Positions 5,396-24,912 of a stretch of DNA of 32,000 bases are shown one piece after another. Position 1 is the stretch's first letter, and the number at the start of each line of letters is the position of its first letter. The DNA is from Patescibacteria group bacterium (GTDB lineage Bacteria; Patescibacteriota; Minisyncoccia; UBA6257; HR35): assembly GCA_030549845.1 (NCBI GenBank), contig JAUQQN010000001.1, positions 60,001-92,000 on the forward strand. Reading direction: 5' to 3'. The position numbers and the translations under genes were made by a program. Under the pieces are notes generated by a model. It searched no databases. It was not told the DNA's origin and saw nothing but the letters and a program-made list of their open reading frames with translations.

Positions 5396-6385
5396 TTAAG
5401 GAAGGATTAAGTTTTTGACGGCTTCTTTGATGGCTTCTTTGTCCAATCCATATTTTTTGATTAAATCTTCCATACTTCCAGATTCACCGAAGGTATTTTG
5501 AAGCCCAATAAAATTCATTTTTATAGGTTTTGTCTTTGCTAAAAATTCAGCAACAGCACTTCCCATTCCACCATGAATCTGATGATCTTCCACTGTAACA
5601 ATCCCCTTAACTTTATTTGCAACTTCTAATATTTTTTCTTCATCCAATGGTTTTATAGTATGTACATTAAAGACATAAACATCTATTCCCTGCTCTTCCA
5701 ATTCTTTTGCTGCAAGTAGCGCTTGATAGACTAAATGTCCAGTTGCCATAATGGCAATTTCAGCACTTTCTGTTTTAGGTTTCCAAAAACATTCTATCTT
5801 CCCAAACCTAAAAGGTGTTTCTTCGGTTGTAATAATTGGAGTTTTTTCTCTTACAAATCTTAAATAAAAAGGACCATAGATTGTTGCAGAATATAAAGTT
5901 GCTTTTTTTGCTTCAAAATAATCACATGGAGAGATTATTCTTATATTAGGCAAACATCTCATAATTGCAATATCCTCTGTTGCTTGGTGAGTTACTCCAT
6001 CAGGTCCAGTAGAAATTCCAGCATGGTGTCCTGCAATTTTAACATTAGAGTTGTTATAAATAATAGTTGTTCTTATTGTTTCCCAATTTTTACCAGGTGA
6101 AAAGGTTGCAAATGAAGAAATAAAAGCAATTTTATTAGAAATACCAAGACCAGCAGCAATTCCGGCCATATTTTGTTCAGCAACCCCACATTCAATGAAT
6201 CTTTCTGGCCATTTTTCAGCAAATTTATGAATTCTTGTTGATTCAGCTAAATCAGCAGTCAATACTACAACGTTAGGATTTTTTTCCCCAAGTTCTAATA
6301 GAGCATCACCATAACCATCCCTTATTGATTTTCTTTCTGGCTCTTCAAAAATTTTTGAATTTAACTTTAATTCAGGGTTAAGCAT
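5396..6385 (-). CDS. Transketolase, C-terminal subunit (pyrimidine-binding plus C-terminal domains)
   Basis: Motifs are RDGYGDALLELG, FIECGVAEQNMAGIAAGL and GPDGVTHQATEDIAIMR. The ATG overlaps the stop of the upstream cohesin gene (TAATG). Confidence 0.9.
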   Translation of the reverse strand: MLNPELKLNSKIFEEPERKSIRDGYGDALLELGEKNPNVVVLTADLAESTRIHKFAEKWPERFIECGVAEQNMAGIAAGLGISNKIAFISSFATFSPGKNWETIRTTIIYNNSNVKIAGHHAGISTGPDGVTHQATEDIAIMRCLPNIRIISPCDYFEAKKATLYSATIYGPFYLRFVREKTPIITTEETPFRFGKIECFWKPKTESAEIAIMATGHLVYQALLAAKELEEQGIDVYVFNVHTIKPLDEEKILEVANKVKGIVTVEDHQIHGGMGSAVAEFLAKTKPIKMNFIGLQNTFGESGSMEDLIKKYGLDKEAIKEAVKNLILP

Positions 6386-7824
6386 TATGGTTTATTATAT
6401 CCTTTTTCTTCTTCTAAATATTCTTCAAACTCTTTTTCTGCTTTTTCCATTATTTCCTTGAATCTCCTATAAATATTTCTTTCCTCTTCGTTAAGGGTTG
6501 GATTTTCATCAAGATTTTTGATTTCTTCTTTCATTTCTCTTATAAATTGCTTAAATTTATTTTTATATCTCTCTTCAAAATCTTTCCAATGTACTTCTCT
6601 TGATTGCTTTTCTGATTTTTCGATTCGTAAAACTAAAATAATAAGTATAATTAAAACAATTAATAGTAGAAAACTGATAAATATAAAAATAAACCAGTTG
6701 CTAAATGGAACTTCTTTTTCAATTATAATGGGTTTTTCAATGGCTTGGAAAGAAATAATTTCTTCTTTTATCGTTTCATTATTTGCTTTATCCTTAATCA
6801 CAATTTTTATTTTTTGAGTACCGCTTAAATTTGTAATTGTTTTTAGTAGCGTTCCATCAACAAATTTTTCTTTAGAATACAATGAATCATTTAGATATAT
6901 TTCTGCTAAATCTAAACCAGAAAGTTCATCTTTAGCAGATACTTTAATATGAAGCGAATTTTGATCGGGAATAAGTGAAAACTCAGAAATAGTTGGGGGG
7001 TTTGTATCGATATTAAACTTAAATCTGGAAATTTCACTAACTCCAGCCTCATTTTCAAATTGTACAGCGAAATAATAAGTTCCATCAGGAATATTTTCTA
7101 ATTTCCTACGAGAAATAGGGGGGCTATATTCTACATAAGGAATTAAATCAGGATTTTTACCATAAGCTGTTTTTACTAGATCTACATCTGAAGGAAGATA
7201 CCATTCAAAAATAGGATTACTATTGTTGTACCATTTATTGGGATCTGGATGGGTAGGTGAGGTTATTATTGGCTTAGGAGGCAAATAAGTTATTGGAGAC
7301 TCTTCTCTAACAATAATTTCTTCTCTTTGTTGTGCTTGAACAACTTTATAACTTCCCCCATACATTGCTTTTAAAATATTGGTCCCCATACCATCATTTG
7401 CTAAAACCATCCCAGAAATGAAATCAATCTTTACCTCTCCTGGTTTAATAGCTTTAAAGTTTATTGTTAAAATTTTTCCTGATTTGCCCTTAAAACCTGG
7501 ATTAAAAACCACTCCTTCAAAAACAAACTCATTACCTTCTATTTCTGGTTCTCTTACCCAAAAATTAAAAATTGATCCAGACTTTGAATGACTAACATAT
7601 TTTAAAATACTATTATCCCAGGTAATTCTGCCTGAAGCAGCATTCATCGATTGGTCGGAAGATTCAACATAAATTGTAATTGTTAAGTTATCGCCGACAT
7701 TCAAATTCTTACTTGAAGGTTGAAGATATAAAGAAGCAGAAAAAGAGAATGCAGGTAATATTAAAAAAACACCAAAAATAAAGAAAATTATAATTATTTT
7801 CTTCTTAAAAATTTTACTATCCAT
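6385..7824 (-). CDS. Cohesin-domain surface protein with N-terminal signal peptide, THPDPNKWY module, Ig-like region, C-terminal TM helix and charged cytoplasmic tail
   Basis: The cohesin-type block (about nt 7330-7740) reads LYLQPSSKNLNVGDNLTITIYVES...NAASGRITWDNSILKYVSHSKSGSIFNFWV...GFKGKSGKILTINFKAIKPGEVKIDFISGMVLANDGMGTNIL. The TM helix is WFIFIFISFLLLIVLIILIILVL. It is followed by a roughly 80-aa K/E-rich tail. Confidence 0.7.
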   Translation of the reverse strand: MDSKIFKKKIIIIFFIFGVFLILPAFSFSASLYLQPSSKNLNVGDNLTITIYVESSDQSMNAASGRITWDNSILKYVSHSKSGSIFNFWVREPEIEGNEFVFEGVVFNPGFKGKSGKILTINFKAIKPGEVKIDFISGMVLANDGMGTNILKAMYGGSYKVVQAQQREEIIVREESPITYLPPKPIITSPTHPDPNKWYNNSNPIFEWYLPSDVDLVKTAYGKNPDLIPYVEYSPPISRRKLENIPDGTYYFAVQFENEAGVSEISRFKFNIDTNPPTISEFSLIPDQNSLHIKVSAKDELSGLDLAEIYLNDSLYSKEKFVDGTLLKTITNLSGTQKIKIVIKDKANNETIKEEIISFQAIEKPIIIEKEVPFSNWFIFIFISFLLLIVLIILIILVLRIEKSEKQSREVHWKDFEERYKNKFKQFIREMKEEIKNLDENPTLNEEERNIYRRFKEIMEKAEKEFEEYLEEEKGYNKP

Positions 7825-8603
7825 TTATCTTTAATTAATTTTATCAATAAATACATAAAAATAGCCAAAAAAACAAGACTGAAAATTTCATCAAAACTTA
7901 ATATTTTTTTAGGTGATAAATATTCTATTCTTTCATTGCCTGCTTTGTCTACAGCCTTAACAAAAATATAACTTCTTAAGGTTTGATCCTTTAGAATATG
8001 CGGAGATTCTGCTTTTACGAAATTTAAATCTTTTAAGTTAGGCTTTATAAAACCTTGTTTTTCAGCAACTTCATAATAAGCAATTCCTGATTGTTTATCA
8101 GTAGTATTAAAAACAATAAAATATTTATTACCAAAGATTTCTTTATTTCGGGATAAATAGATTTTAAAACTTTCTGGAGGGTATTTATCCTCAATTACTT
8201 CTTGAACTTTTAATTTTTGATTATCTAAAAATTTTTTTTCTACTTTTAATTCTACTGAAGTACCTGAACCATCATTTAACAAAACCTTAGACAAAGGTAG
8301 AATTTCAATTAATGCTTTATCTTTTTTAGCTTCAAAAATTAAGTTTATTAAAAGCCCCTTTTTGCCAATATATCCCCCAATACTAACTCCTGAAAATTGA
8401 ATTATATTATTTTGAATAAATGGTTTTTCTATCCAAAAATTAATAATTGAGCCTGCTTCTTGAAAATCGCGAAAAATTAAACTATCAGAAAATTTTATTT
8501 TAACCTCAAAAGCATTTACTGACTCTCCTTCGCTATCTATATGAATAGGAACTATAATTTTTTTATTTACACTGCTCGGCTCTCCAAAATAAATTTTTGC
8601 CAT
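7794..8603 (-). CDS. Second cohesin-like protein with a C-terminal TM anchor and no recognisable N-terminal signal peptide
   Basis: NAFEVKIKFSDSLIFRDFQEAGSIINFWIEKP...GKKGLLINLIFEAKKDKALIEILPLSKVLLNDGSGTSV parallels the cohesin block of the neighbouring gene. The C-terminal helix is IFSLVFLAIFMYLLIKLI. The ORF starts directly with MAKIYFGEPSS. Confidence 0.6.
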   Translation of the reverse strand: MAKIYFGEPSSVNKKIIVPIHIDSEGESVNAFEVKIKFSDSLIFRDFQEAGSIINFWIEKPFIQNNIIQFSGVSIGGYIGKKGLLINLIFEAKKDKALIEILPLSKVLLNDGSGTSVELKVEKKFLDNQKLKVQEVIEDKYPPESFKIYLSRNKEIFGNKYFIVFNTTDKQSGIAYYEVAEKQGFIKPNLKDLNFVKAESPHILKDQTLRSYIFVKAVDKAGNERIEYLSPKKILSFDEIFSLVFLAIFMYLLIKLIKDKWIVKFLRRK

Positions 8604-8604
8604 T

Positions 8605-9648
8605 TTATCCTGTATAATAATAAGCCATAATAGAAAAATCTATTAAATCTACTTTACCATCCCCATTTAATTTTTCTTTTTCTATTTTTGCAAATTCAGA
8701 ACTTAATTTTTTCTTATACCAATAAGCAGCAATGGAAAAATCAACTAAATTTACCTTACAATCATTATTTAAATCTCCTTTTAGGGGACATTTTCCTATT
8801 GTTTTTTTAGGTATAGAAACTTCTCCAACATAAAAACTAAGCGCTCTTGAATAAGGACTAACTAATTGATTTAGGTAAATTTGCCGTGATTTTGTATAGT
8901 GCTGGCCGGTTTCCAAAATACCTGTATCTAAAACATATAAATATGAACCATCTTTTTCGGTTGGAATTCTAAAAAATAACTCTTCTTCAGATGAAACATT
9001 AATAATAACATCGGCATCAGGGGTTGCCTGACCAAAAATTTGTAAAACATCTCCTTTTTTGACAGAGGTTTTATCAATATCAATTGTTGGTGAAAGAAAA
9101 AATCCTGAGCTTCTAACAGTTTGTCCAGCAATAACATTTACTTGAAAAGTTAATAAACTTGATCTTCTACCTTTTGAGTCTTCAGAATACAGGGTAAATA
9201 AATAAAAGCCTGGAGTAAGATTACTTAAGGTAATTTCAAAATCTCCTCTTGCTCCAGCTTTTGTGATCTGTCTTATTTGACCGTCAGAAAGGAGGGTTAC
9301 TTCAGAATTTGGATAAGCTTTACCAGAAATTATAACTGTTCCATACTGAAGGGGTGGAGGAGCCCATCCTCCGCCTCCGCCACCAGGAGGTTGGATTATG
9401 CATTGAGAAGTATTAAAAGTGCAATTAGAATTACAACTTAAATTACCACCACTATATCCTAAAGAAGTGCAGGTTTGTCCACCTAAATCTGGACCATCGC
9501 ACTCTTCATTATTTTCCTTTATATTATTTCCACAAATACCTGGTTTAAATGCTGTTACGCTTACGGAGGCAGATTTTATTTTATAGATAAAAGCTAAGGA
9601 AACAATTAAAAATAATATTAAAATTAGTATAAAATCTTTTAATTTCAT
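8605..9648 (-). CDS. Secreted dockerin-bearing protein: signal peptide, Cys-rich CGNxxxExxEECD module, Pro/Gly hinge, two Ig-like regions and a C-terminal dockerin
   Basis: The C-terminus carries two EF-hand-like dockerin repeats, GDLNNDCKVNLVDFSIAAYWY and LNGDGKVDLIDFSIMAYYY (about nt 8608-8790). The Cys-rich module is GICGNNIKENNEECDGPDLGGQTCTSLGYSGGNLSCNSNCTFNTSQC. The hinge is PPGGGGGGWAPPP. Confidence 0.7.
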   Translation of the reverse strand: MKLKDFILILILFLIVSLAFIYKIKSASVSVTAFKPGICGNNIKENNEECDGPDLGGQTCTSLGYSGGNLSCNSNCTFNTSQCIIQPPGGGGGGWAPPPLQYGTVIISGKAYPNSEVTLLSDGQIRQITKAGARGDFEITLSNLTPGFYLFTLYSEDSKGRRSSLLTFQVNVIAGQTVRSSGFFLSPTIDIDKTSVKKGDVLQIFGQATPDADVIINVSSEEELFFRIPTEKDGSYLYVLDTGILETGQHYTKSRQIYLNQLVSPYSRALSFYVGEVSIPKKTIGKCPLKGDLNNDCKVNLVDFSIAAYWYKKKLSSEFAKIEKEKLNGDGKVDLIDFSIMAYYYTG

Positions 9649-10535
9649 TCATGCTTTTGGGTATATTTTCTAATAATATAAGCGTTATATTTCCTGATTA
9701 ATATTGGTAACACAAAAACAACAAATATTATTAAAGCTACAATCACTGCTATGTAGTAAATATTCAAGAAAATAAACCAGTAATTAAAATTCAAACTATT
9801 GTTTTCTCCATAATTCATATTAAAAATAGCTTTATAAATTCCAAAGGCGAACTTTCCTTGCCATTCGGTTTCTAAAAGCCTTTCAGCATTTGGCAAAATT
9901 TGAAGTTCTTTAGGGTTAATTGGTAAACTAGCTACTTCTTTACCAAAAATATTTTTAATATCGATATAACCTCGAGGAGTGATATAAGTATTTCCTTCAT
10001 TTTTGATTAAATAAGCAAACTTTACTGGAAAATCCCAAACAATTCTTTTGGCATCAAATTTTGCAATAGTTGCTTTATAAATGGCATTACCTCTAACATT
10101 AATAAAAACTAAAGCGCCAACACGGGCAATAATTCCAACTTGACCTGCTTCTGTTTTGGGAGCACCACTCCCAACCCAAATTGCTAAGAAATGTCCGCCA
10201 GGTGGGGCTGCTTGAGGAATATTTATTTTAACTGGGATTTGTATATCTTCTTTTGCTTTTAAAGAAAATTCTTTTTGAACATTAACCCAGTCTTTTTCAG
10301 GGGGATTTTCAAAAAACTTTCTTTCTCCCCCAACATCTGTAAACCCCTCGACAGTGATATAAAATTTAGAATCCCAATCGCTATCGTTTCTAATAAACAA
10401 ATTAAAATCTAAAACATCTCCTGGATTAGCAGTAAATTCTATCTTTGCAGGACCAACAGTTAAAGCATAAGAGTAATTTATTATCACGAGAAAGAGAATT
10501 AAAGGAGAGATGAGGATTAATAACTGTTTCTTCAT
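9645..10535 (-). CDS. Surface protein with DUF916/DUF3324-like architecture (signal peptide, two beta-rich halves, C-terminal TM plus basic tail)
   Basis: The signal peptide is MKKQLLILISPLILFLVIINYSYA. The first half reads LTVGPAKIEFTANPGDVLDFNLFIRNDSD...KINIPQAAPPGGHFLAIWV. The second half reads FAYLIKNEGNTYITPRGYIDIKN...ILPNAERLLETEW. The C-terminal TM is IAVIVALIIFVVFVLPILI, followed by RKYNAYIIRKYTQKHE. The family assignment is by eye only. Confidence 0.45.
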   Translation of the reverse strand: MKKQLLILISPLILFLVIINYSYALTVGPAKIEFTANPGDVLDFNLFIRNDSDWDSKFYITVEGFTDVGGERKFFENPPEKDWVNVQKEFSLKAKEDIQIPVKINIPQAAPPGGHFLAIWVGSGAPKTEAGQVGIIARVGALVFINVRGNAIYKATIAKFDAKRIVWDFPVKFAYLIKNEGNTYITPRGYIDIKNIFGKEVASLPINPKELQILPNAERLLETEWQGKFAFGIYKAIFNMNYGENNSLNFNYWFIFLNIYYIAVIVALIIFVVFVLPILIRKYNAYIIRKYTQKHE

Positions 10536-10553: not shown

Positions 10554-11180
10554 TTAATTAGCACTACATTGATAAGTTATTGTATCACTATAATCACCTG
10601 CTGGAGCTAATGCTGAAACAGCTACTTTATGGGTAACAACAACTTCTCTATTAGCCACTGGTTGTGATGAGGAGGCTAAGGTCTGAAATGTTGTAGTTAA
10701 TTTGCCAACAGTATTACCTGTTTGATTATAGATTGGGTTTAAGGATAAAATACCCCCTGAACCAGATGTTGTTGTAGCTGCTTGAATTCCATAACCATCT
10801 GTTCCAGGCTGTAAGGTTGCTGTATTTGGAAAACCACTTGCTGGTGAAGGAATTAAATATGTAGGAGAAGTTGACTTGTATAAGCCTCCATTCGTTCCAT
10901 CGCCTTGATCTTTAATTTCTACTTTGCAACCACCTCCCGGATTACAAGAAACAACAGTTGTTATGTTAGGTGATGAAGTAAAGACTGCTGATGTATCGAT
11001 ATTACCAAAAGAAGTTGAGGTTGCTGATGGCGTACATGTCACTGTTTGAGTAACACTTGCAGAAACAGAAACAGAGCCCCCTGTTTGAGCAAAAAGGCGA
11101 CCTAAAGAAAAAATTTCTATAAATGGAGGGAAATAAAGCGAGAGGATTAAAATATATATTAAAACTTTTAATTTTTTCAT
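10554..11180 (-). CDS. Small secreted S/T/G-rich protein, paralogous to the C-terminal module of the 1231-aa giant protein
   Basis: The signal peptide ends at about RLFAQ. Residues 47-208 align with the last 150 aa of the giant protein. Identical runs are GLYKSTSPTYLI and PGTDGYGIQA, and the ends match (VTCT/LTCT, and GDYSDTITYQCS versus GNYSDIITYSCS). Confidence 0.65.
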   Translation of the reverse strand: MKKLKVLIYILILSLYFPPFIEIFSLGRLFAQTGGSVSVSASVTQTVTCTPSATSTSFGNIDTSAVFTSSPNITTVVSCNPGGGCKVEIKDQGDGTNGGLYKSTSPTYLIPSPASGFPNTATLQPGTDGYGIQAATTTSGSGGILSLNPIYNQTGNTVGKLTTTFQTLASSSQPVANREVVVTHKVAVSALAPAGDYSDTITYQCSAN

Positions 11181-11404: not shown

Positions 11405-12091
11405 ATGGAGATTTATCACGTTTTAAATCGGGGAGTAGACAAACGAATAATTTTCTTTGACGAAAAAGATTATTTAAGATTTATACACGATCTTTACGAA
11501 TTTAACGATGAAGAGCCAGCAATGAATACTAATTATTTTTTCAACAAATTTAAAAATATAGACTTACGAAGTCGATATATTGCTAACCAAAGAAGAAAGA
11601 ATAGGAAAATGATAGTAAAAATTTTTGCTTTTTGTTTGATGCCTAATCATTATCATTTAATGCTTTCTCCTATCGTAAAAGATGGTATTACTAAATTTAT
11701 GAGAAAGTTAAATATTGGGTATGCAAAGTATTTCAATGAAAAGTATGGAAGGGTTGGTACTTTATTTGAAAGAAGATATAAGGCAATACCTATTACAAAA
11801 GAAAGTCATTTCATTTATCTGCCTACTTATATTCATCTAAATCCCTTAGATTTGAAATTTCCTGAATGGCGAAATAAAGAAATAAGAAATTATAAGGAAG
11901 CAATGAAATTCTTGGAAAGTTATCGTTGGTCAAGTTTTCTTGATTATATTGGTAAAAAGAATTTCCCATCTATAACTCAAAGAGAGTTTTTAAATAAAAT
12001 CTGGGGAGGACCTAAAGAAATCAGAAAAAACATTCTAAGATGGTTAAAAGAAATGGATTTTGAAGAAATGAAAGAGATCACCCTAGAATGA
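11405..12091 (+). CDS. IS200-like / REP-associated tyrosine (Y1, HUH) transposase
   Basis: Motifs are YHVLNRGVDKRIIF, CLMPNHYHLML (HUH) and GTLFERRYKAIPI (catalytic Tyr region). At 228 aa it is larger than a minimal TnpA. Confidence 0.8.
   Translation: MEIYHVLNRGVDKRIIFFDEKDYLRFIHDLYEFNDEEPAMNTNYFFNKFKNIDLRSRYIANQRRKNRKMIVKIFAFCLMPNHYHLMLSPIVKDGITKFMRKLNIGYAKYFNEKYGRVGTLFERRYKAIPITKESHFIYLPTYIHLNPLDLKFPEWRNKEIRNYKEAMKFLESYRWSSFLDYIGKKNFPSITQREFLNKIWGGPKEIRKNILRWLKEMDFEEMKEITLE
11557..11577 (+). repeat. Hairpin repeat, copy 2, inside the transposase CDS
   Basis: TATAGACTTACGAAGTCGATA has one mismatch to the flanking copies. It encodes the residues DLRSRY. Confidence 0.8.
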
Positions 12092-12163: not shown

Positions 12164-15100
12164 TTAGAGGGAGCTGCAAGAATAGGTAATTATGTCAGAA
12201 TAGTTGCCAGTGGGAGCAATATATGAAGCAGAGGCTTTATGTTTAATAATAATTTGAGCGTTAGAGACAGCAGTTGTTGAAGAAGCTAATTGAATATCAG
12301 TTAAACTAAGCCCACCAACATTATTCCCGCTTTTATTATATTTTGGATTAATAGTTATATTTGAGTTAGTTGTTGTTGCTTGAATTCCATAACCATCAGT
12401 TCCCGGAGTTAAAGTTGCATCAGTAGACTGAATTAAATAAGTAGGTGAAGTTGATTTATAAAGCCCAGGATTTGTGCCATTTCCAGCATCTTTAACTGTT
12501 ATTTGAAAACCACCAGAAGAAGTAATAGTAATTGTAATGTCTGGAGTTGAGGTTGAAACAGAAGATGGTGATAAATTCGAAAAAGAAGTAGAAGTAGCTG
12601 AAAGAGTACAAGTCAAAGCTGGAGCAGCTGCAGTGGTAATTTGAGGAATAACTGAATAAGTATCTAATAAGCTTCCGTCTGCTTTAACAACTCTAAAACA
12701 ATAAGTTGTTTCTGGAGGTGCACCGTTGTCTTTTAAAGCAAAGTCCCATTTACCATCTTGACCTGGAAGAATTGCTGCTTGAGAGTTAGTAAAGTTATTT
12801 ACTTCTTCATAAGTTTGATTAACAACCGTATCTGCACCATGAGTTGGGTCATTAGAATTAGGAGTTAATGGTGCACCATCATTTGGTGTAGGATTATCAT
12901 AAAAAGAAATAATTGTCGTAGCTGTTACATCGCTCCATAAAGAAGGAGGAGATGAAGTACAGCTTGAACCTGTTGAAGTTCCAAATTGAAGTTTAAACTC
13001 TTGACCTGAAATAGAGAGAGTTCCAGTTGAAATATGTATTAATAATCTTAATCTAAAAACCTGACCAGGATAGATTAAAATTGCCGGTGTATCTTGATTA
13101 GCTAAGGGACTACCGACATCAGTTGAATCTAAGTTATTAAAAAATCTATAAGCAGATTGATTATATGTAACATCGACTTCTAACCATTCAATTTCTAGTC
13201 TGACTACAAAGTTTGCATCACCAGCTGCAGATTCTTGATATAAAGCAAAACCTTCGCCTGGAGCTATCATAAGCTCATCTTGAAAAACAATTTCTATATG
13301 ATAAATTCCATAATTTTGGTTAACAGCGCCAGGTTGAGTAACACCTAATAAACGAGAATGAGTATTTTGATCAAAACTCACTATAGGATTATTTATTGAA
13401 ATTTCAGCAGTTGAATTAGGTGTTGAAGAGTTTTTAGGTAAAATATCAGTTTTATTTATCAAAGTATCACCTTTAGCTGATTTTACTTTTCTTATGGAAA
13501 TTGGAATATAAGTTGGTGCAGTTGCTGCTGCAGTTCTATCTACTCTAATTCCTATCCTTTTTACCAAATAATTCTTACCTGAAAAGAAAGGATTGAAAAA
13601 TGAAGAATAAACATAACCTGCATTTAAATTTCCTGCAATTGGTCCGGTATAAAAAAGATATTCTCCTTGAGGATCAGGAGCAGCTGTTACTTCTTGCCAT
13701 TCTATTAAAATTTTTACTACCAAAACTGAGCTTCCAGCTGCTTCTTGATATAAAGCAATACCTTCTCCTGGTTTTAAAATTAATTTTTCATCATTTCTGA
13801 AGATAATTTCTCTATAACCTCCTAAAGAAGGTGCTGTAGCCGCACCTACAGCACCAGGAGTTTGAACTGAAACCAATCTTGCATCATTAGTTCCAATAAA
13901 ACTTACTGTTACCCCTGTTCTTCTTATATCTGCAACTGAATTAGGACTTCCAGAATGTTTTTTAGGTATATTAGCTGTGGTAATTTGCGTTCCCCCAGAA
14001 GCTGAATTTATTTTTCTTAAGGTCATTGGAATATAAACACCTGCTCCAGTAGTATCAATTCTTATATCAATTCTTTTGACAACAAAATACCTTCCAGAAG
14101 CAGAAGGATTAAAAAATGAAGCATAAACATAATTTGCTGCTGTAGAACCATTAATTGGCCCGATATCAATTAAATATTCATTTTGAGCTGAAGGAGTGTC
14201 TGGTTTTTCTTGCCATTCAATCATTACTTTAATATAATGATCAACATCTCCAGCTGCTTCAATATAAAAGCCAATTCCTTCTCCTGGCTGTAAAATCAAT
14301 TTTTCATTGTCACCAAAAACTATTTCTCGATGGCCAATAACCTGAGCTACTGCGCCAGGACCATTTACTGTCAAAAGCCTTGAATCAGTTGTACCAACAT
14401 ATGTTGCGGTAATTGCTGTTCCACAAGCTGATCCGCACCAACGAATTTCCATTGCACTATTTGCGCTTCCAGTATGTTTTTTCGGAATATCTGTAGCTGC
14501 AATAAGTAAACCACCTGAAGCAGCACTTAATCTTCTCCAAGTAAAAGCAGAATAAACTGCTGCAGCGTCAGCATCATTTCTAATAACTAATCTTTTAACA
14601 ATTGCTGTTCTCCCAGAACCAGATGGGTTAAAAAAGGTAAAAAATGTTGTATTAGCAGCTGCAGCTACTTCAATTCTTCCTAAAGCAATTAAATACTCAT
14701 TTTGAGCTGAAGGAGTAGTTGTTACTTCTTGCCATTCAACAACCAATCTTATTAATTGATCAACATCTCCAGCAGTGTCTGCCACTAAAGCAATTCCTTC
14801 TCCTGGTTGTAAAATCAATTTTTCGTCAGTTTGATCAAAATTTAAATACATAAAACCATGAGGCTGACCAGCGGCACCACAAGGGGTAACCATAGCAATT
14901 CTTGCATCAGTTCCTCCAACTAAAGTAACAGTAACTCCTGTATGTCTAAGATCCATAGCTGTATTTGCACTTCCTGTATGCTTTTTAGGTACATCAGCAG
15001 CAGGAATTTGGGTTCCTCCAGAAGCAGCTGAAATTCTTCTAATGACAAGGTTATTTGTGTAAACAGCTGCTGCATCGCAAGTTTCAGCACCAAACCAAAT

Positions 15101-15859
15101 TCTCTTTATAATTGCTACCCTTCCTGAGCCAGCAGGATTAAAAAATGAATGATAAACATAATTAGCTCCACCAGCATTTTCTACTCTTGGAAAAGCAAAT
15201 AAATATTCATTTTGGGCTGTAGGAGTACTACTTGAAGAAATTTCTTCCCATTCTACATAAAGTCTTATAAGATGAGCAGTTGTCCCTGCTGCTTCTTGAT
15301 AAAGAGCAAGTCCTTCTCCTTGTTGTAAAATAATTGGTTCGTCTGAATTAGTAAATTGAATATCTCTTATGCTGTGCCACTGCCCAGCAGCACCAGGCAT
15401 TGCTTGTGATAAAATTCTTGAATTAGCCGTTCCAGCAAAAGTAACTGTTGGCCCAGCATATCTTACATCTAAAACAGGATCTGAAGAATAATTATTTTTT
15501 TTAGGAATATCAGCTGGTAAAATTTGTGTTCCGCCCGAAGCAGCAGTAATTCTTCTTAGAGTAAGATTCACATAATTACCTGTACCATTAGCAAAAGCTC
15601 TTACTACAATTCTTTTTATTAAAACAGTTCTTCCTGAAGCAGAGGGATTAAAAACAGAAGCATAAACATAATTTGCTGTTGCTGTCCCAGCTACTGGCCC
15701 GATGTCAACAAAATATTCATTTTTGTAAGGACTTAACTCGGCTTTGCTTTCTCTTTTGTTTAACAATAAATCTAAATTTAAAAATGACAAAAAGAGAATA
15801 GTTATTAGTAAGAATTTTGCTGTTTTTTTAAAAAAGATAAAAATATTTTTAGCTTTCAT
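12164..15859 (-). CDS. Giant secreted surface protein (1231 aa): signal/anchor helix, five tandem ~170-aa repeats, a ~186-aa middle domain, and a C-terminal ~150-aa module shared with the small neighbour
   Basis: This is an uninterrupted 3.7-kb ORF. The N-terminal hydrophobic segment is FLLITILFLSFLNL. The repeat, middle-domain and C-terminal-module boundaries were derived from the translation. The ATG overlaps the upstream gene's stop (ATGA). Confidence 0.85.
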   Translation of the reverse strand: MKAKNIFIFFKKTAKFLLITILFLSFLNLDLLLNKRESKAELSPYKNEYFVDIGPVAGTATANYVYASVFNPSASGRTVLIKRIVVRAFANGTGNYVNLTLRRITAASGGTQILPADIPKKNNYSSDPVLDVRYAGPTVTFAGTANSRILSQAMPGAAGQWHSIRDIQFTNSDEPIILQQGEGLALYQEAAGTTAHLIRLYVEWEEISSSSTPTAQNEYLFAFPRVENAGGANYVYHSFFNPAGSGRVAIIKRIWFGAETCDAAAVYTNNLVIRRISAASGGTQIPAADVPKKHTGSANTAMDLRHTGVTVTLVGGTDARIAMVTPCGAAGQPHGFMYLNFDQTDEKLILQPGEGIALVADTAGDVDQLIRLVVEWQEVTTTPSAQNEYLIALGRIEVAAAANTTFFTFFNPSGSGRTAIVKRLVIRNDADAAAVYSAFTWRRLSAASGGLLIAATDIPKKHTGSANSAMEIRWCGSACGTAITATYVGTTDSRLLTVNGPGAVAQVIGHREIVFGDNEKLILQPGEGIGFYIEAAGDVDHYIKVMIEWQEKPDTPSAQNEYLIDIGPINGSTAANYVYASFFNPSASGRYFVVKRIDIRIDTTGAGVYIPMTLRKINSASGGTQITTANIPKKHSGSPNSVADIRRTGVTVSFIGTNDARLVSVQTPGAVGAATAPSLGGYREIIFRNDEKLILKPGEGIALYQEAAGSSVLVVKILIEWQEVTAAPDPQGEYLFYTGPIAGNLNAGYVYSSFFNPFFSGKNYLVKRIGIRVDRTAAATAPTYIPISIRKVKSAKGDTLINKTDILPKNSSTPNSTAEISINNPIVSFDQNTHSRLLGVTQPGAVNQNYGIYHIEIVFQDELMIAPGEGFALYQESAAGDANFVVRLEIEWLEVDVTYNQSAYRFFNNLDSTDVGSPLANQDTPAILIYPGQVFRLRLLIHISTGTLSISGQEFKLQFGTSTGSSCTSSPPSLWSDVTATTIISFYDNPTPNDGAPLTPNSNDPTHGADTVVNQTYEEVNNFTNSQAAILPGQDGKWDFALKDNGAPPETTYCFRVVKADGSLLDTYSVIPQITTAAAPALTCTLSATSTSFSNLSPSSVSTSTPDITITITSSGGFQITVKDAGNGTNPGLYKSTSPTYLIQSTDATLTPGTDGYGIQATTTNSNITINPKYNKSGNNVGGLSLTDIQLASSTTAVSNAQIIIKHKASASYIAPTGNYSDIITYSCSSL
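13175..15721 (-). repeat. Five tandem in-frame coding repeats (164-173 aa each) of an unassigned domain
   Basis: The units are at 15212-15721, 14702-15211, 14183-14701, 13667-14182 and 13175-13666. Each starts with (N/G)EY(L/F). Each contains ANYVYASFFNPSxSGR, VKRI, LRRIxAASGGTQI, DIPKKHxGS, EKLILQPGEGIALYQEAAG and IEWQE-like blocks. Short DNA stretches are also conserved, for example tcattttgagctgaaggagt at about 14170 and about 14697. Confidence 0.85.
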
Positions 15860-17430
15860 TGCTCTTCAAGTATAAATCCTAGTTCTTCAAGTTTCTCCTT
15901 TGCTAAAAACTTATCTAAATTAAAATTTTTTCTAAAATCTTCTAAAACTAAACTATAATCATCAGAAAAAACTTCACCATGAATATTATCTTTAAAATAT
16001 AGATTATGTCCGTCATAGATAACCTCATAAGTTATTTCTTGAAAATTAACAATAGCCCTTTCTCCCTTAGATTTATCAAACTTAGGTAACTTTTTTTTAT
16101 AAATTTTTGTATTTTTGTAATCTGCAGCAAAAATTAAAGATTCTTCTTCATTTATCCAAAAAACAAAATTTTCTTTCGAAGCAATTACTGAATTATCGGA
16201 AGGCGAAATTACACCAGAAGCAATTTTTTTAATTGTTTTGTTGCTTACATTAATTAATAACAATTCATTTTCTTTTGTTTCTTTATTAAAAACAAAAGCA
16301 ATAAGTTCTGTAGGTGAAATTCCTTTGATTTTTTTAATTTCTAACTTATTAAAATCAAAATTTCCTAATTCCTGGAATTTATCAATTTTAATTTCTTCTT
16401 CATAACTTTCTTTACTGCTCTTTTTATTATATTCAACTTCTAAACTCATGCTTTCTAAATATAAATAAGGAATATTTTCAATTGTTGGGTTTGATTGAAC
16501 TTTGATTTGAATTTTTGAAATCATTAGCCAGTCATTAACTGGAATAGAAAAACTTACATCTTGCGAATTTTTATTGGTTATTGAACCCAAATATTGCCAA
16601 GTTTGAGCATCAAGAGTGTAAAAGATATCAAAATAATTTAGGGTTTGCTCTAATTGTGTTGTAGAAGTTATTTCTTCTTGAGCAGTTGTTGTTTCTTGGG
16701 TTGTTGTATTTGTTTCTTGAGTTGTCAGCTCCTGAGCTTTCGTTGCTTCAGGAGTTATTGTATTTGTCTCTTGGATTATCGTGTTTATTGTTTCTTCGGT
16801 TGTAGAAGTTACAAAAGTTTGCTCGCTTGTCAAATTTTCATTAGGATAAGCTGGTTCTGAATTTGTAATTTCTTCTGCAAAAACTATTTTGTAAAAAAAT
16901 GACTGAGGAATTTCGATTGTTGAAGTTGAAGGATTTTCTGGGACTGTATTTGTTGAATTTTCTGTTGAAGTATTCATAACTTCAATTGTTTTTGGTGGAA
17001 GAATTTTTTCGATTAATGACTTTGAAGATGTTGGCTGAATGATAGGTGTTTCTCTTCTTTCATTTGTTAAAATCATATTAAATTTAAGAGTTATCTTTCG
17101 AATTTCACCTTCTTCAATTGGTCCTTGAAAATTTCCGCAGTAAATTTCTTTGAATCCTCCTAAATAAACAGCTGAATTTGTTTCATTTATTAAATCTGGA
17201 CTTTCAACCTCAGGTTTACCTTGTGCTTTTTCAGGATTAATAAAACTTCCTAAGCAAGATGAAGGATAAAAATATAAAATATCGGCCTTACTTTCTTTTA
17301 GTATGAATTTATTCCAAACAATAATTAAAAAAATAATAAAAGCGAGTATTATAAATTCCTTTTTGAAGATTTTTAAAAGTATAGTATGAAAGAGCTCCCA
17401 GGTCTTTTTTTGAACAAATTTTGGGATCAT
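15856..17430 (-). CDS. Membrane-anchored hypothetical protein with a Thr/Glu-rich linker
   Basis: The TM helix is FIILAFIIFLIIVWNKFIL. The low-complexity segment is IIQETNTITPEATKAQELTTQETNTTTQETTTAQEEITSTTQ. The C-terminal half is beta-rich. It is translationally coupled (ATGA) to the giant gene. Confidence 0.6.
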   Translation of the reverse strand: MIPKFVQKKTWELFHTILLKIFKKEFIILAFIIFLIIVWNKFILKESKADILYFYPSSCLGSFINPEKAQGKPEVESPDLINETNSAVYLGGFKEIYCGNFQGPIEEGEIRKITLKFNMILTNERRETPIIQPTSSKSLIEKILPPKTIEVMNTSTENSTNTVPENPSTSTIEIPQSFFYKIVFAEEITNSEPAYPNENLTSEQTFVTSTTEETINTIIQETNTITPEATKAQELTTQETNTTTQETTTAQEEITSTTQLEQTLNYFDIFYTLDAQTWQYLGSITNKNSQDVSFSIPVNDWLMISKIQIKVQSNPTIENIPYLYLESMSLEVEYNKKSSKESYEEEIKIDKFQELGNFDFNKLEIKKIKGISPTELIAFVFNKETKENELLLINVSNKTIKKIASGVISPSDNSVIASKENFVFWINEEESLIFAADYKNTKIYKKKLPKFDKSKGERAIVNFQEITYEVIYDGHNLYFKDNIHGEVFSDDYSLVLEDFRKNFNLDKFLAKEKLEELGFILEEQ

Positions 17431-19967: not shown

Positions 19968-20564
19968 TTAATAAGCTCCTTTAGGGAAAATTAATTCTTT
20001 AATAGTAAGCACTAAGATTTTTAAATCATTTAAAAAGTTTATATTTTCAATATATTTTAAATCTAAATTGATTCTTTCTTGGAAGCTTAACTCATTTCTT
20101 CCTGAAACTTGCCATAATCCAGTTAAGCCCGGCCTAACACTGAAAATTTTTGTTGGAACATTATCACCAATTTCATATGGCCTTGGCCCAACAAAAGACA
20201 TTTCTCCTTTTAATATATTAAAAATTTGTGGTAATTCATCAAGAGAATGGACTCTAATAAAAAATCCACCCTTTATTAGTCTTGGATCAGGCTTAAGTTT
20301 TTTATATCGTTTCCACATTTTTTTAAAAGTCTCATCTTTAAGAACTTCATTTAAAATTTTCTCAGCATCCCTTCTCATTGTTCTTATTTTATACATATTA
20401 AAAATTTTTCCATTTTTCCCAATCCTTGGCATTATATAAAAAGGTGGCCAGCCATCAACCAAAATTACGTAAAGAGATAAAATAAAAATTAAAATTAAAA
20501 AAATTGGTAAAAAAATAATAGACAAGATTAAATCAAAAACTCTCTTCCCTACTCTTCTATACAT
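19968..20564 (-). CDS. Small monotopic phosphoglycosyl transferase (bacterial sugar transferase family, WbaP/PglC-like)
   Basis: Motifs are KRVFDLILSIIFLPIF, PRIGKNGKIFNMYKIRTM, DELPQIFNILKGEMSFVGPRP and RPGLTGLWQVSGRN. Confidence 0.85.
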   Translation of the reverse strand: MYRRVGKRVFDLILSIIFLPIFLILIFILSLYVILVDGWPPFYIMPRIGKNGKIFNMYKIRTMRRDAEKILNEVLKDETFKKMWKRYKKLKPDPRLIKGGFFIRVHSLDELPQIFNILKGEMSFVGPRPYEIGDNVPTKIFSVRPGLTGLWQVSGRNELSFQERINLDLKYIENINFLNDLKILVLTIKELIFPKGAY

Positions 20565-21613
20565 TCTTTAATTATTTTATAAATCTCTTCAGCTGTTTTT
20601 TGCCAACTAAATCTTTTTATAAATTCTAACCTTTTTTTCTCAAAATCTTCGTAATTTATTTTTTCAACTTGATTTAATGCATTTAAAAAACTTTCTTCAT
20701 TATTTAAATCAAAAAAGATACCTATATCTCCATAAATTTCTCGATGAACTGGGATATCAGATAAAATAACAGGTGTTCCACAAGCTAATGCTTCTAATGG
20801 AGGAAGATTAAACCCTTCTTTTAAAGAGGCTGAAATTAAAGCTTTTGCTTGATTGTATAATTGAATCAAAGTTTCATCATTTACTTCCCCATAAAAAATA
20901 ATCTTATCTTCTAAGTTTAATTTCTTAACTAATTTTTTTAAAAAATTAATATAATTTTTAAAATCTTCTCTAAAACCTATTATTTTTAACTGGTCTTGCA
21001 CTCTTAAAATTTTCCACATTTTTATTATGTAATCCACATTTTTATAGGGAAATGAAGGGTTCAAGGTTAAATAAAAGTTTTCTTTTGAAAGATTTAATTT
21101 TTTAAATACAGGATCAGGAGCTAAATGAGCTATTCTTATTTTATCTCTGTTTATATTAAAAACACTTATCAATTCTTCTTTTGTAAATTTAGATGGAGTT
21201 ATTATAAGTCTGCAGTTATCAATTAATTTTTTTAAAAAAACTTTATGATAAATAAAAGATGGGATTCTTTTTTTAAAAGTGGTAATATGAACTAAGTCAT
21301 AAACAACACAAATTTGCGGTATTTTTTTATTAAAAAAATAACCAACGTGGAAAGGGTTAAATATTAAATGGGGTTTAATTTTTTTCGTTACATCATAAAA
21401 AATTTTTTGTAATTTTAAAAAATGTAAAAATTTAGAATATTCTTTAGGATACAGCAAAGAATTTACAGATGAAATATCCAAAGGAAAGGAAGTTAAAATA
21501 TATACCTCTTCTTCAGAAATTTTAGATAATTCTTTTATTAAATTGTAAGCAGCCCTAAATATTCCGGAGTTTTTGGACCCCCAATAAAAAAAATTAATTA
21601 AAATTTTTTTCAT
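20549..21613 (-). CDS. Glycosyltransferase family 4 (GT-B)
   Basis: The C-terminal motif is SASLKEGFNLPPLEALACGTPVILSDIPVHREI (EX7E type). Confidence 0.75.
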   Translation of the reverse strand: MKKILINFFYWGSKNSGIFRAAYNLIKELSKISEEEVYILTSFPLDISSVNSLLYPKEYSKFLHFLKLQKIFYDVTKKIKPHLIFNPFHVGYFFNKKIPQICVVYDLVHITTFKKRIPSFIYHKVFLKKLIDNCRLIITPSKFTKEELISVFNINRDKIRIAHLAPDPVFKKLNLSKENFYLTLNPSFPYKNVDYIIKMWKILRVQDQLKIIGFREDFKNYINFLKKLVKKLNLEDKIIFYGEVNDETLIQLYNQAKALISASLKEGFNLPPLEALACGTPVILSDIPVHREIYGDIGIFFDLNNEESFLNALNQVEKINYEDFEKKRLEFIKRFSWQKTAEEIYKIIKECIEE

Positions 21614-22922
21614 TTATAACTTCACTTAATGAAAACCCTATCAAAATTGAGGAAATATAAAATATCAATGGATTAGTGAAAAAATAATCTACAATATTCC
21701 CCAACAGAACAACAATAAAGAATAATTTAAGTGGTGAATTTAGTCTAAATATTAATATTATTATACTCCACAAAATGACTACCCACAATATACCAAAATC
21801 TAGCCAGACTTGAAGCACTAGATTGTGTGCATTAAATCCTTTTGTATTTTCTCCCCATAAAGCTGTAAATTTCACATTCCTACTTAAAAATTCTGCTTGA
21901 AAAACATAGGGGCCCACCCCTAAGGGAAATTGACTTAACACATAGAGAGCGTAAGAATAAATTTCTTCTCTAAAATTTATAGAAGTAATTTTATAGGTAA
22001 TTATATTATGCTCTTTAAAAAATTGGCTAAGTGAATTTTCTATTGCTTGTTTGTACCATGAGTTATAACTAAATTTTTGGATAATTTCTAAACCACTTAA
22101 CCAAAAGAGCCAAAACAAAAAAATATTTAATATCAAAAATATTAAAATAATTTCAAAATCTAAACTGAATTTATTTTTTTTGTAAATTCCATATAAGATA
22201 TAAAGAGCTAAAAAAATAAACAGAATGAAATTGTTTTTACTACCGGTTAAAACTAAATTTAATCCACTTAAGATAAAATAAAAGTTAAAAATATTATTAC
22301 TGATTAGGCTTTCGTTTAATAAAACTAAAGCTACAATTAGGGATAGATTAATAAAAAAAGCATAAGAGTTTGGGTGCCCAACTAACGACTGAGCTCTTGG
22401 GTAGGTATATGGGCGTTCATAAAAGATAGTCTTGTATAAATCAGGATTAAAAAAGAGGATTAAATTAAAAAAGTTAAGAATAATAGCAATAAGAAAAATA
22501 ACTAGAAATAATAAGTTTTTATAATAGGTTTTGAACAAACCGATTAATAAAGCCAAAATGAAGACTGGCAAATATTCTAAAATTTTTAAGGTATACTTTA
22601 AGCTTGTTAAGGGATATGGGGACGTAAGGTTTAAAACAACAAAGTAAAAACTCAATAAAAAGAAATAAAAAATTGAATAGTAATTATTCAAAAATTTACT
22701 GAAAAATTTGCAAAGTTCTTCTTTAAAAAATAGAATTAAACACAAAATAGAAGAAAAAGGTACTATAATATTTGCAAAATTAAAATCTGTAAAAGGTATA
22801 TTTATCTCTGGCAAAACTAAAAAAGTTATAGCAACTGATATAGAAAAAACAATTAAGTAAACCTCAATCCTGTCTTTGCGTAAATTTTCTCTAAAAATAT
22901 TATAAATTTCGGTGGCAAACAT
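21594..22922 (-). CDS. O-antigen ligase / Wzy_C-family polytopic membrane protein
   Basis: There are many TM helices. Wzy_C-like motifs are AQSLVGHPNSYAFF, LTGSKNNFILFIF and NAHNLVLQVWLDFGILW. The annotated start overlaps the upstream GT2 by 70 nt, so the true start may lie further downstream. Confidence 0.65.
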   Translation of the reverse strand: MFATEIYNIFRENLRKDRIEVYLIVFSISVAITFLVLPEINIPFTDFNFANIIVPFSSILCLILFFKEELCKFFSKFLNNYYSIFYFFLLSFYFVVLNLTSPYPLTSLKYTLKILEYLPVFILALLIGLFKTYYKNLLFLVIFLIAIILNFFNLILFFNPDLYKTIFYERPYTYPRAQSLVGHPNSYAFFINLSLIVALVLLNESLISNNIFNFYFILSGLNLVLTGSKNNFILFIFLALYILYGIYKKNKFSLDFEIILIFLILNIFLFWLFWLSGLEIIQKFSYNSWYKQAIENSLSQFFKEHNIITYKITSINFREEIYSYALYVLSQFPLGVGPYVFQAEFLSRNVKFTALWGENTKGFNAHNLVLQVWLDFGILWVVILWSIIILIFRLNSPLKLFFIVVLLGNIVDYFFTNPLIFYISSILIGFSLSEVINEKNFN

Positions 22923-24907: not shown

Positions 24908-24912
24908 TATAT

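Follow-up and report, generated by a model that had tools for sequence, protein, structure and literature searches.

In the Bacillota, WxL (Csc) cell-surface clusters encode a small protein that consists of a single domain, a large protein that ends in the same domain and carries its binding domains N-terminal to it (PMC9772566, PMC10599100), and a WxLIP with the organisation DUF916-DUF3324-TM (PMC9772566, PMC10599100, PMC1534035). AlphaFold2 has been reported to predict that a beta-hairpin of the Bacillota WxLIP is inserted into the WxL domain (PMC10599100). In the current study, a gene cluster with a similar logic was analysed in a window of Patescibacteria DNA (the window being the whole stretch under analysis, 32,000 nucleotides in length), where it encodes a 1231 aa protein with five tandem units (ORF 12164..15859, minus strand), referred to below as the five-unit protein. 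The Patescibacteria (CPR), to which this ultra-small bacterium belongs, represent a large share of bacterial diversity, and for most of them a life in attachment to other cells is assumed; to our knowledge their attachment machinery is, with the exception of type IV pili, essentially unknown, and we are aware of the WxL-cluster principle almost exclusively from Bacillota. We propose, with moderate confidence, that the five-unit protein is the ‘large’ subunit of a WxL-cluster-like envelope complex in which the array is displayed and binds a ligand, and this complex appears to be specific to Patescibacteria.

The five-unit gene belongs to a same-strand operon that is conserved in many Patescibacteria lineages (25–38 loci per gene family). 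Upstream, and overlapping it by 4 nt, lies a gene (15856..17430, minus strand) for a 524 aa partner with a TM helix, a Thr/Ser-rich low-complexity region and a conserved C-terminal domain; this partner holds the upstream position in 38 loci and returned no Pfam match. Downstream on the minus strand are encoded a 208 aa small secreted protein (10554..11180) with a signal peptide and a single domain of the type that ends the five-unit protein, a 296 aa WxLIP-like protein (9645..10535) with a signal peptide, two beta-sandwich domains and a C-terminal TM helix, a 347 aa protein with Big_6 and type I dockerin domains (8605..9648) and two cohesin-domain proteins with C-terminal TM helices (6385..8603; ORFs 7794-8603 and 6385-7824). 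In other genomes the small secreted protein is represented by one to four tandem genes, with products of approximately 362 aa each. In 25 loci there is also translational coupling to an upstream beta-lactamase/PBP-like gene, whereas LPXTG proteins were not seen. This multi-gene system lay beyond the view of an earlier, sequence-only reading of the DNA, which had dealt with the repeats themselves.

The likeness to a WxL cluster is one of composition: a small secreted one-domain protein, a large protein with beta-rich domains N-terminal to that same domain, and a co-encoded WxLIP homologue with a C-terminal TM helix. The gene for the latter is conserved in 31 loci. Its product has EfmWxLIP1 as best PDB match, PF06030 was detected in 7 of 26 family members (the best of them scoring 35.5 bits where the cut-off is 27.3), and hhalign comparison of the CPR family with six Bacillota WxLIP proteins returned 97.9% (E 3.5e-13, 283 columns) while the controls of this comparison were negative; these profiles identify the protein as a true WxLIP (DUF916-DUF3324-TM) homologue. 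LysM domains in some members of this family and the coupled PBP-like gene both point to peptidoglycan, hinting indirectly at a link that WxL clusters share, in which the common domain would bind peptidoglycan and the N-terminal domains host ligands. The cohesin proteins gave profile matches to the cellulosomal cohesins 5aoz and 5m2o (E 8e-4), and Pfam Cohesin was found in 3 of 28 members of their family at 1.7e-7, together with Big_13 and DUF7743.

The C-terminal domain of the five-unit protein (approximately residues 1077–1231, about 155 aa; 12167..12631, minus strand) shares 53% identity with the downstream small secreted protein (E 1e-50), and the corresponding identity is 41–63% in 33 of 40 loci, divergent subtypes included. 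By these alignments the two are paralogues that have co-diversified in those 33 loci. The domain was detected in 95 homologues, lies at their very C-terminal end in every case, and is presumed to be a docking or anchoring module. Relatives of the small protein numbered 483 at E≤0.001, and among the 120 matches listed all were without a Pfam domain and those with a named source were from Patescibacteria. The shared domain was rejected as a WxL domain: neither it nor the small protein matched WxL (PF13731) in Pfam at E≤1-5, hhalign against the WxL alignment returned 0.2% with no profile similarity, and, unlike the WxL domain with its two Trp-x-Leu motifs, it has none, the aligned domain of the window protein containing no Trp. 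It is thus from the WxLIP partner and the logic of the gene cluster that the analogy is drawn. Between the array and the C-terminal domain, an all-beta domain (approximately residues 896–1076; 12632..13174, minus strand) that matches nothing in Pfam or the PDB is inserted; it is missing from typical homologues of about 1095 aa, and RCC1, LamG or other domains take its place in other lineages.

A different role for the shared domain is conceivable, in which the small proteins polymerise in a pilin-like manner by strand complementation and the five-unit protein acts as a tip or base subunit of the FimH or CsuE type. Such a role would fit the paralogous relation between C-terminal domain and small protein, the occurrence of the latter as one to four tandem paralogues and a weak match to SCPU (archaic pilin; E 0.012), and it would also fit a weak fold match of the full model to the CfaB pilin fusion 3f84 (prob 0.85) and the resemblance of the hairpin insertion predicted for WxL domains to donor-strand complementation (PMC10599100). 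However, the SCPU match lies below threshold (16.5 bits against a cut-off of 22.4), the operon has no usher, sortase or recognisable polymerisation signal, and no usher-like gene was seen among the conserved families; we give this reading a low probability.

Full-length alignment and HMM analysis of the five-unit protein confirmed the five tandem copies of approximately 170 aa that had been proposed from the sequence. The units are contiguous and cover residues 47–895, or exactly 13175-15721 on the minus strand: unit 1, residues 47–216 (15212..15721); unit 2, residues 217–386 (14702..15211); unit 3, residues 387–559 (14183..14701); unit 4, residues 560–731 (13667..14182); and unit 5, residues 732–895 (13175..13666). 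Their pairwise amino acid identity is 36–55% over the full length, and an HMM built from them matches each of the five, unit 1 included, from end to end. The motifs (N/G)EY, FFNPxxSG(R/K), RRIxAASGGT, PKKH, LxPGEG and EWxE and the S/T/P linkers between the units, all noted in the sequence-only reading, are real, and unit 5, described there as the most divergent, is indeed so in the alignment of units. Positions N25, P26, G139, W160 and E162 are invariant among 90 diverse units, and two nearly invariant cysteine pairs are specific to their position: C226 and C292 in unit 2 (ETCD...TPCG) and C440 and C444 in the RWCGxxC insertion of unit 3. Ahead of unit 1, a stretch of 27–100 residues is found in all homologues; in the window protein these 46 residues (15722..15859, minus strand) include a hydrophobic helix, at approximately residues 16–33, and are predicted either to serve as a signal peptide for Sec or to anchor the N-terminus in the membrane, although a helix left uncleaved may give the protein a different topology. 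The claim of a surface location fits this hydrophobic element and the envelope-protein operon.

Homologues come from Patescibacteria MAGs, and the family is essentially confined to this phylum. Exactly five units were found in each of the 141 five-unit homologues examined, which included 120 close homologues and 18 representatives at 50% identity. Entries with two to four units start or stop mid-unit, as contig-end fragments do, and look like such fragments; among the homologues examined none that appeared complete had another unit number. The array is unlikely to be an artefact of assembly, since this five-unit protein was recovered both from a 302,595-bp contig and from a 12-kb contig independent of it. 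Between proteins, units at the same position share 54–67% identity against 37–48% for different positions: unit 1 averages 62% to other unit 1s and 42–47% to other positions, whereas the means to counterparts are 67% for unit 2, the most conserved position, and 54% for unit 5, the most divergent. The nearest non-self unit occupied the same position for 597 of 598 units, and identities between units within a protein (38–48%) equal the off-diagonal values between proteins, a comparison that gives no sign of concerted evolution. Since each unit most resembles the one at its own position in other proteins, the duplication predates the family, in agreement with the earlier view that it is old and maintained. 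The fixed number of units and the lack of concerted evolution led us to reject membership of the variable-number tandem-repeat class. Conservation of the array across CPR classes is high (about 50–60%). This level would be unusual in a host-specific adhesin, and may rather reflect a structural or enzymatic role.

The AlphaFold2 model of unit 2 is a beta-sandwich of 10 strands (pLDDT 94.9, pTM 0.90), and that of residues 36–1231 (1196 aa) reached a pLDDT of 93.0 and a pTM of 0.81. The latter value is unusually high for seven domains unless their interfaces are fixed and, together with linker sequences whose consensus is conserved across the five-unit family, suggests a rigid five-module architecture. 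It may be that such an array forms the distal part of an undescribed surface organelle present across Patescibacteria, one that serves episymbionts as a general device for attachment to host cells or host envelope glycans and that would also comprise the WxLIP anchor, the small docking subunits, the cohesin-dockerin pair and the PBP-like enzyme; to this broader reading we accord a low probability. A still more speculative variant has the five units closing into a penton-like pseudo-pentameric ring, which, if true, would explain why their number is always five. The rigid modules could otherwise set a fixed distance or geometry as a spacer or as part of an S-layer-like lattice. The strictly fixed module number, the conserved linkers, the high pTM, the high sequence conservation across CPR classes and the presence in the operon of several anchored envelope proteins, including the cohesin-dockerin pair, speak for this, but S-layer proteins usually diverge fast and the loop motifs common to phage single-domain proteins (NPxxSG, SGGT, PKK, PGEG, WxE) resemble a functional site more than a lattice contact, and we consider a purely structural role unlikely.

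The sequence-only reading could not assign the unit to a named repeat family, and no such family matched it here. Profile searches found no match for the whole protein in Pfam and NCBIfam at E≤1, none for the unit in PHROGs and nothing significant in the PDB (E at least 0.14), and the named adhesin repeats (Big/Ig, FN3, cadherin, CARDB) were rejected on this basis. The description of the unit as unassigned nevertheless needs a qualification: the unit is probably a jelly-roll-type beta-sandwich, and it is homologous to uncharacterised phage proteins. In Foldseek comparisons with the PDB, capsid proteins of the jelly-roll type (CMV, TAV, picornavirus VP2, nanovirus) made up nearly all of the top matches of the unit, but these are weak (TM 0.3–0.38, E at least 3e-3); the full model also matches a single-chain C1q head consisting of three fused jelly rolls. 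Phage proteins match clearly, the BFVD comparison giving a TM of 0.80, an rmsd of 2.3 Å and an E-value of 8.6e-11 and returning, at E<1e-3, 44 matches to proteins of phages or giant viruses. In addition, the unit HMM matched Streptomyces phage proteins with 60.0 and 54.6 bits over positions 2–160, and P0191, a distant relative, carries a PHROG virion-structural region.

These folds bear on whether the unit is a cupin- or PNGase-like enzyme or cofactor module acting on glycans or peptidoglycan, the array then being a multi-site processive enzyme. Across all positions and in the phage relatives, glycine-rich loop motifs show little or no variation, PNGase F and PHM, enzymes with two jelly rolls, are among the weak fold matches of the full model, and many loci have a PBP/beta-lactamase-like gene coupled upstream; however, no triad of His, Cys or acid residues as usual in such enzymes is conserved, the fold matches remain at TM<0.45 and Pfam, NCBIfam and the PDB profile search yielded no enzyme-family match, so that catalysis is very unlikely.

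The sequence-only reading had further suggested an adhesin array whose unit number changes by recombination at conserved nucleotide runs. Such runs exist, as a 31 nt linker block with 90–97% identity in three copies and a PGEG block with 69–81% nucleotide identity between units, but the runs identical between units extend over only 9–22 nt, the units are 51–66% identical in DNA, and the fixed count, the positional orthology and the lack of concerted evolution do not support copy-number change; this model is largely refuted and retains a minimal probability. That the gene is prophage-derived or encodes a phage tail fibre or virion protein, as the Streptomyces phage, BFVD and P0191 matches might suggest, is equally hard to credit given the absence of phage genes nearby, the conservation of the envelope-protein operon across many Patescibacteria lineages, the N-terminal signal or anchor and a tblastn search of 50,697 phage records, with the unit as query, in which nothing was found.

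Based on these findings, the WxL-cluster-like complex would be built as follows. The five-unit protein would be exported by Sec, after which its C-terminal domain would dock it into a wall- or membrane-associated platform of small secreted proteins held by the membrane-anchored WxLIP homologue. The units derive from a single ancient five-fold duplication, each position having later gained its own constraints, such as the cysteine pairs of units 2 and 3, and together with their short conserved linkers they would form a rigid ectodomain that projects from the anchor, with the lineage-specific domains (RCC1, LamG and others) lying between array and anchor. The array is probably the displayed, ligand-binding part, and its conserved ligand or partner may be a glycan or envelope component, belonging either to the host or to the bacterium.

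This study defines an unnamed domain family with a probable jelly-roll-type fold that is common to phage proteins, an architecture in which five-fold repetition is frozen across the family, and a conserved, previously undescribed surface-complex operon of about eight genes that joins the five-unit protein to a WxLIP homologue and a cohesin-dockerin pair. Fixed unit number and positional orthology provide a counter-example to the default view of tandem surface repeats as variable in copy number, and the operon supplies concrete candidates for experiments on CPR-host contact.

Regarding known systems, the single-domain phage proteins (Streptomyces phage FlowerPower gp42, Coruscant HUN41_00113, as well as numerous BFVD entries of 150–290 aa) share the whole unit domain, with NPxxSG, SGGT, PGE and WxE as common motifs. 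In phage/MGE proteins, however, the domain is present once and forms the C-terminal end, followed by a median of 1 residue in proteins with a median length of 197 aa, and only in the Patescibacteria proteins are five copies fused and joined both to a signal or anchor and to a presumed docking domain. The unit resembles viral single jelly-roll capsid proteins and the TNF/C1q jelly rolls in being modelled as an all-beta, approximately 10-strand two-sheet sandwich; it differs in the low TM values given above, in lacking sequence similarity to them and in showing no sign of a capsid-like or trimeric assembly. As in cellulosomes, a dockerin protein and two membrane-anchored cohesin proteins are encoded together, which implies a modular, non-covalent surface assembly; unlike in cellulosomes, the five-unit protein itself has neither cohesin nor dockerin and the operon has no glycoside hydrolases. 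Compared with the WxL clusters of Bacillota, the operon adds the dockerin and cohesin proteins, the Thr/Ser-rich TM protein and often a beta-lactamase-like gene, and a fixed five-fold array of an unnamed domain stands where the large WxL proteins have a mix of known adhesin domains. The operon thereby carries the WxL-cluster principle to a distant phylum, the Patescibacteria, with a different anchor domain.

The minus-strand ORF at 12164-15859 encodes a protein of 1231 aa, termed here the five-unit protein, in which residues 47-895 (exactly nucleotides 13175-15721) comprise five consecutive units (residues 47-216, 217-386, 387-559, 560-731 and 732-895). Whole-length alignment of the units gave pairwise identities of 36-55%, and an HMM built from them matched each unit end to end, thereby substantiating the boundaries proposed in an earlier sequence-only reading, whose quoted motifs and S/T/P linkers are indeed present and whose assertion that unit 5 diverges most is borne out by the pairwise alignment. 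N25, P26, G139, W160 and E162 are invariant when 90 diverse units, drawn from many genomes, are aligned, while near-invariant Cys pairs are specific to unit 2 (14702-15211; ETCD...TPCG) and unit 3 (14183-14701; an RWCGxxCG insertion), which would suggest extracellular disulfides and sub-functionalisation of individual units. The protein has no match in Pfam or NCBIfam over its whole length, its C-terminal 336 aa retrieved nothing from Pfam, PHROGs gave no match for the unit or the C-terminal part, and profiles of the unit, the inserted domain and the small-protein family (both described below) found nothing significant among PDB sequences; the unit can thus still be assigned to no named repeat family. 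The array is not reported by Tandem Repeats Finder because the DNA of the units is too diverged.

A homologue search covering 5.8 billion proteins returned 187, and all 120 of those listed contain exactly five units. An exhaustive search with a profile across 1.84 billion cluster representatives identified 668 proteins (E ≤ 0.001). Those multi-unit proteins among them that appear complete all have five units, none having two, three, four or six; entries with 2-4 units start or stop mid-unit and are for that reason read as contig-end fragments. In all, 141 five-unit proteins were tallied. Mean identity between proteins is 54-67% for units at the same position as against 37-48% for different positions, identities within a protein (38-48%) equal the between-protein off-diagonal values, and the closest match outside its own protein is the same position for 597 of 598 units. 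By these comparisons the five-fold duplication is older than the divergence of the family, as an old and maintained duplication had been supposed to be, with each position under its own constraint, as the Cys pairs of units 2 and 3 illustrate, and without concerted evolution. It had also been proposed that conserved nucleotide blocks could support recombination that alters copy number. Such blocks do exist, a 31-nt linker block being present in three copies at 90-97% identity, but unit-to-unit DNA identity is 51-66% and the longest exact runs in common are only 9-22 nt; given the 28% G+C of the window and its biased codon use, blocks of this kind are expected from conserved peptides. The uniform count of five, the positional orthology and the lack of concerted evolution speak against such recombination, and a reading of the array as a variable repeat is largely refuted. 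An assembly artefact, which had been named as a threat to the count, is unlikely since five-unit genes that are identical or 92% identical are present on independent contigs.

Scanning of 185,579 species genomes for the five-unit gene yielded 57 loci, nearly all in MAGs of Patescibacteria (CPR) labelled Paceibacter/Paceibacterota, Parcubacteria, Kerfeld-, Gracili-, Azam-, Doudna- or Kaiserbacteria, among others. A few MAGs bear archaeal or proteobacterial labels, some on near-identical copies; near-identical or related copies assigned to DPANN or other archaea, Gammaproteobacteria, Bacteroidia and others are found among the homologues P0265-P0268, P0002 and P0004 and the loci L038, L046, L049 and L055. 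These are probably mis-binned contigs, as their gene content is patescibacterial. Other genes of the window (T4SS_pilin, glycosyltransferases, D-Tyr-tRNA deacylase) are consistent with CPR. Further envelope functions are clustered on the strand of the five-unit gene (19968-25812 and 28847-29725, minus), namely polysaccharide synthesis, with Bac_transf, GT1, GT2 and GT4 enzymes and a Wzy_C-type protein, and a protein with a T4SS_pilin domain.

AlphaFold2 modelling of unit 2, using the alignment of 90 unit sequences, predicted an all-beta fold of approximately 10 strands (pLDDT 94.9, pTM 0.90). Structure searching of this model with Foldseek found no match below E 1e-3 in the PDB, the weak best matches (TM-scores 0.30-0.38) being nearly all viral single jelly-roll capsid proteins (cucumber mosaic virus, tomato aspermy virus, picornavirus VP2, nanovirus and circovirus) together with one phage tail fibre, but did find 44 matches below 1e-3 among predicted viral structures (BFVD). 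The named BFVD matches are all uncharacterised proteins of tailed phages or giant viruses, mostly of 150-290 aa, the best being from Streptomyces phage Coruscant (TM 0.80, rmsd 2.3 Å, 22% identity, E 8.6e-11). Two uncharacterised phage proteins, Coruscant HUN41_00113 and FlowerPower gp42, score 55-60 bits against the unit HMM; because this match spans the whole domain and includes the common motifs NPxxSG, SGGT, PGE and WxE, the unit and the phage proteins are homologous, beyond mere likeness of fold. The gp42 gene has the major capsid gene on one side and the holin gene on the other. No match to the unit was obtained by tblastn among 50,697 phage records, and the reading of the five-unit gene as part of a prophage is largely refuted.

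A second architecture class comprises approximately 90 single-domain representatives (median 197 aa), in which the domain stops one residue before the C-terminus; in a few proteins of 300-800 aa it is likewise at the extreme C-terminus, and the longer protein P0191, with the domain in that location, contains a PHROG "virion structural protein" region. The single-domain protein P0161 (210 aa), whose N-terminal motif IQVPPDSTGKKVRSIEKTV is common to several such proteins, is encoded on locus L008 (JGI contig Ga0450853_000160, 14.6 kb) among many ORFans and an adjoining integrase gene, and two glycosyltransferase genes lie at other sites of that contig; this locus looks like an uncharacterised mobile element or virus.

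Residues 36-1231 were modelled with 81 homologues (pLDDT 93.0, pTM 0.81). A pTM of 0.81 across seven beta domains in one chain implies that the predicted inter-domain geometry is confidently fixed rather than that of beads on a string, and this agrees with linkers whose length and sequence (...EWxEV-xxxPxAQ-(N/G)EY...) are conserved family-wide. Foldseek with the full 1196-residue model did not reveal the overall geometry of the array, returning only low-TM matches to multi-jelly-roll proteins (a single-chain C1q head, PNGase F, PHM, double-jelly-roll capsid proteins and a CfaB pilin fusion).

Concerning the C-terminus, the last 155 or so residues are 53% identical (E 1e-50) to a small secreted protein of 208 aa encoded downstream (10554-11180, minus). 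An HMM of this C-terminal domain matches 95 of the 141 five-unit proteins and reaches the C-terminus in every one; a relationship between the domain and the unit was ruled out (hhalign, 0.1%). When the C-terminal 190 aa were compared with downstream ORFs (E < 1e-3) in the 40 loci with a complete five-unit gene and downstream sequence, a match was obtained in 33, most at 41-63% identity, including L001 and L004 even though their C-terminal domain is too divergent for the HMM. Such matches, extending to HMM-divergent lineages, indicate that the large and small proteins co-diversify, as would be expected if both domains serve one assembly. Inserts that depend on the lineage, RCC1 and LamG among them, lie between the array and the C-terminal domain. 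The insert of the window is a beta domain of about 180 aa (12632-13174, residues ~896-1076; YRFFNN...FRLRLLI...FKLQFG) without a Pfam or PDB match, while at this site other lineages have RCC1 repeats or LamG_3/DUF2341, or else are greatly extended, in proteins of up to 3782 aa.

Clustering of ORFs around the five-unit gene in 60 loci defined a conserved one-strand operon, on the minus strand in the window. It opens with a TM protein bearing a Thr/Ser-rich region and a conserved C-terminal domain (15856-17430; 38 loci), the gene of which overlaps the five-unit gene by 4 nt. This upstream partner has a long Thr/Glu/Gln/Asn-rich low-complexity region, its gene contains a degenerate 21-nt tandem repeat (especially 16675-16725; TRF score 56) and the size of the protein differs greatly from one genome to another (~250-970 aa); genuine length variation in the operon could reside here and not in the five-unit array. 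In 25 loci a gene for a Beta-lactamase2/PBP-like protein of ~335 aa (PF13354, 2.5e-40; for example at L001 9010-10020, L004 9019-10020 and L019 6836-7825) precedes the five-unit gene and overlaps its start by ~19 nt, so that translational coupling is implied; this gene is missing from the window and from L010, L011 and L013, the closest relatives of the window. One to four small-protein genes follow the five-unit gene, and then genes for a ~325-aa protein with a signal peptide and C-terminal TM helix (9645-10535; 31 loci), a Big_6 and Dockerin_1 protein (8605-9648; 28 loci) and two proteins with C-terminal TM helices (7794-8603 and 6385-7824; 29 loci) assigned as cohesins by matches to PDB cohesins (E 8e-4) and Pfam Cohesin (1.7e-7). 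The succession of a dockerin protein and two membrane-anchored cohesin proteins over 6385-9648 (minus) suggests a cohesin-dockerin surface assembly in a Patescibacterium, and no glycoside hydrolases were found near these genes. An IS200-like Y1 transposase ORF (11405-12091, plus; PF01797, 2.9e-10) separates the five-unit gene from the small-protein gene and has the opposite orientation. The gap is 984 nt here, compared with ~50-160 nt in other loci and +95 nt in the 92%-identical relative L010, and the ORF looks like a recent insertion splitting the operon. A smaller three-gene variant at L067 (314-3748) and L068, encoding proteins of 215, 344 (a WxLIP_PGBD match) and 533 aa, may follow the same organisation in simpler form.

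In the ~325-aa TM-anchored family, Pfam WxLIP_PGBD (DUF916) is matched by seven of 26 members (best 35.5 bits, cut-off 27.3), and the family profile has Enterococcus faecium EfmWxLIP1 as its top PDB match, with borderline significance (E 0.014). Since searches with the small-protein and WxLIP-like profiles retrieved no Bacillota WxL/WxLIP proteins, the named matches being mostly from Patescibacteria, genuine WxL clusters carried by plasmids of Lactococcus, Enterococcus, Melissococcus and Levilactobacillus were used for comparison. The family aligned with Bacillota WxLIP proteins at 97.9% probability (E 3.5e-13) over 283 columns spanning both Ig-like domains and the TM helix, with all cross-controls negative, and at profile level is confirmed as a true WxLIP homologue.

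Regarding function, we lean slightly towards a model in which the five-unit protein would be exported, its C-terminal domain would dock at the cell wall onto its small paralogues and the WxLIP-like anchor, and a rigid array of five jelly-roll modules would be displayed to bind a conserved ligand or partner; the lineage-specific inserted domains may contribute further functions. The main rival departs from this only in assembly, in that the small proteins would polymerise like pilins with the five-unit protein as terminal subunit, and, while a weak SCPU match, the CfaB fold match of the full model and the tandem small-protein paralogues are consistent with it, we deem it rather unlikely. That the five-unit protein has a purely structural or lattice role appears more doubtful again, and that it is an enzyme highly improbable. 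No description of this CPR family or operon was found in the literature searched on jelly-rolls, dockerin/cohesin, WxL or AlphaFold/cell surface, and the unit, for which Pfam, NCBIfam and PHROG offer no model, represents a new domain family in an array frozen at five copies. The operon furnishes testable candidates, of predicted function, for the poorly understood cell-surface biology of Patescibacteria.

At the system level the operon is classed as a variant of the WxL-type surface cluster. Three components are invariably encoded by WxL clusters: a WxLIP, a small WxL protein with nothing but the domain, and a large WxL protein in which beta domains that bind the host precede a WxL domain at the C-terminus; the WxL domain is believed to rest on peptidoglycan and to present those N-terminal domains outward, and Firmicutes account for >91% of known WxL sequences (PMC9772566, PMC10599100). 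The LysM domains of some WxLIP-like members and the coupled PBP-like gene point to a peptidoglycan association in the CPR operon too. The C-terminal/small-protein domain of CPR was rejected as a WxL domain, as it shows no similarity to WxL domains (0.2%) and lacks Trp-x-Leu motifs. The CPR operon therefore matches WxL clusters in its three-part logic and in having a true WxLIP homologue; it differs from them in a common domain that is either different or unrecognisably diverged and in the presence of extra components.
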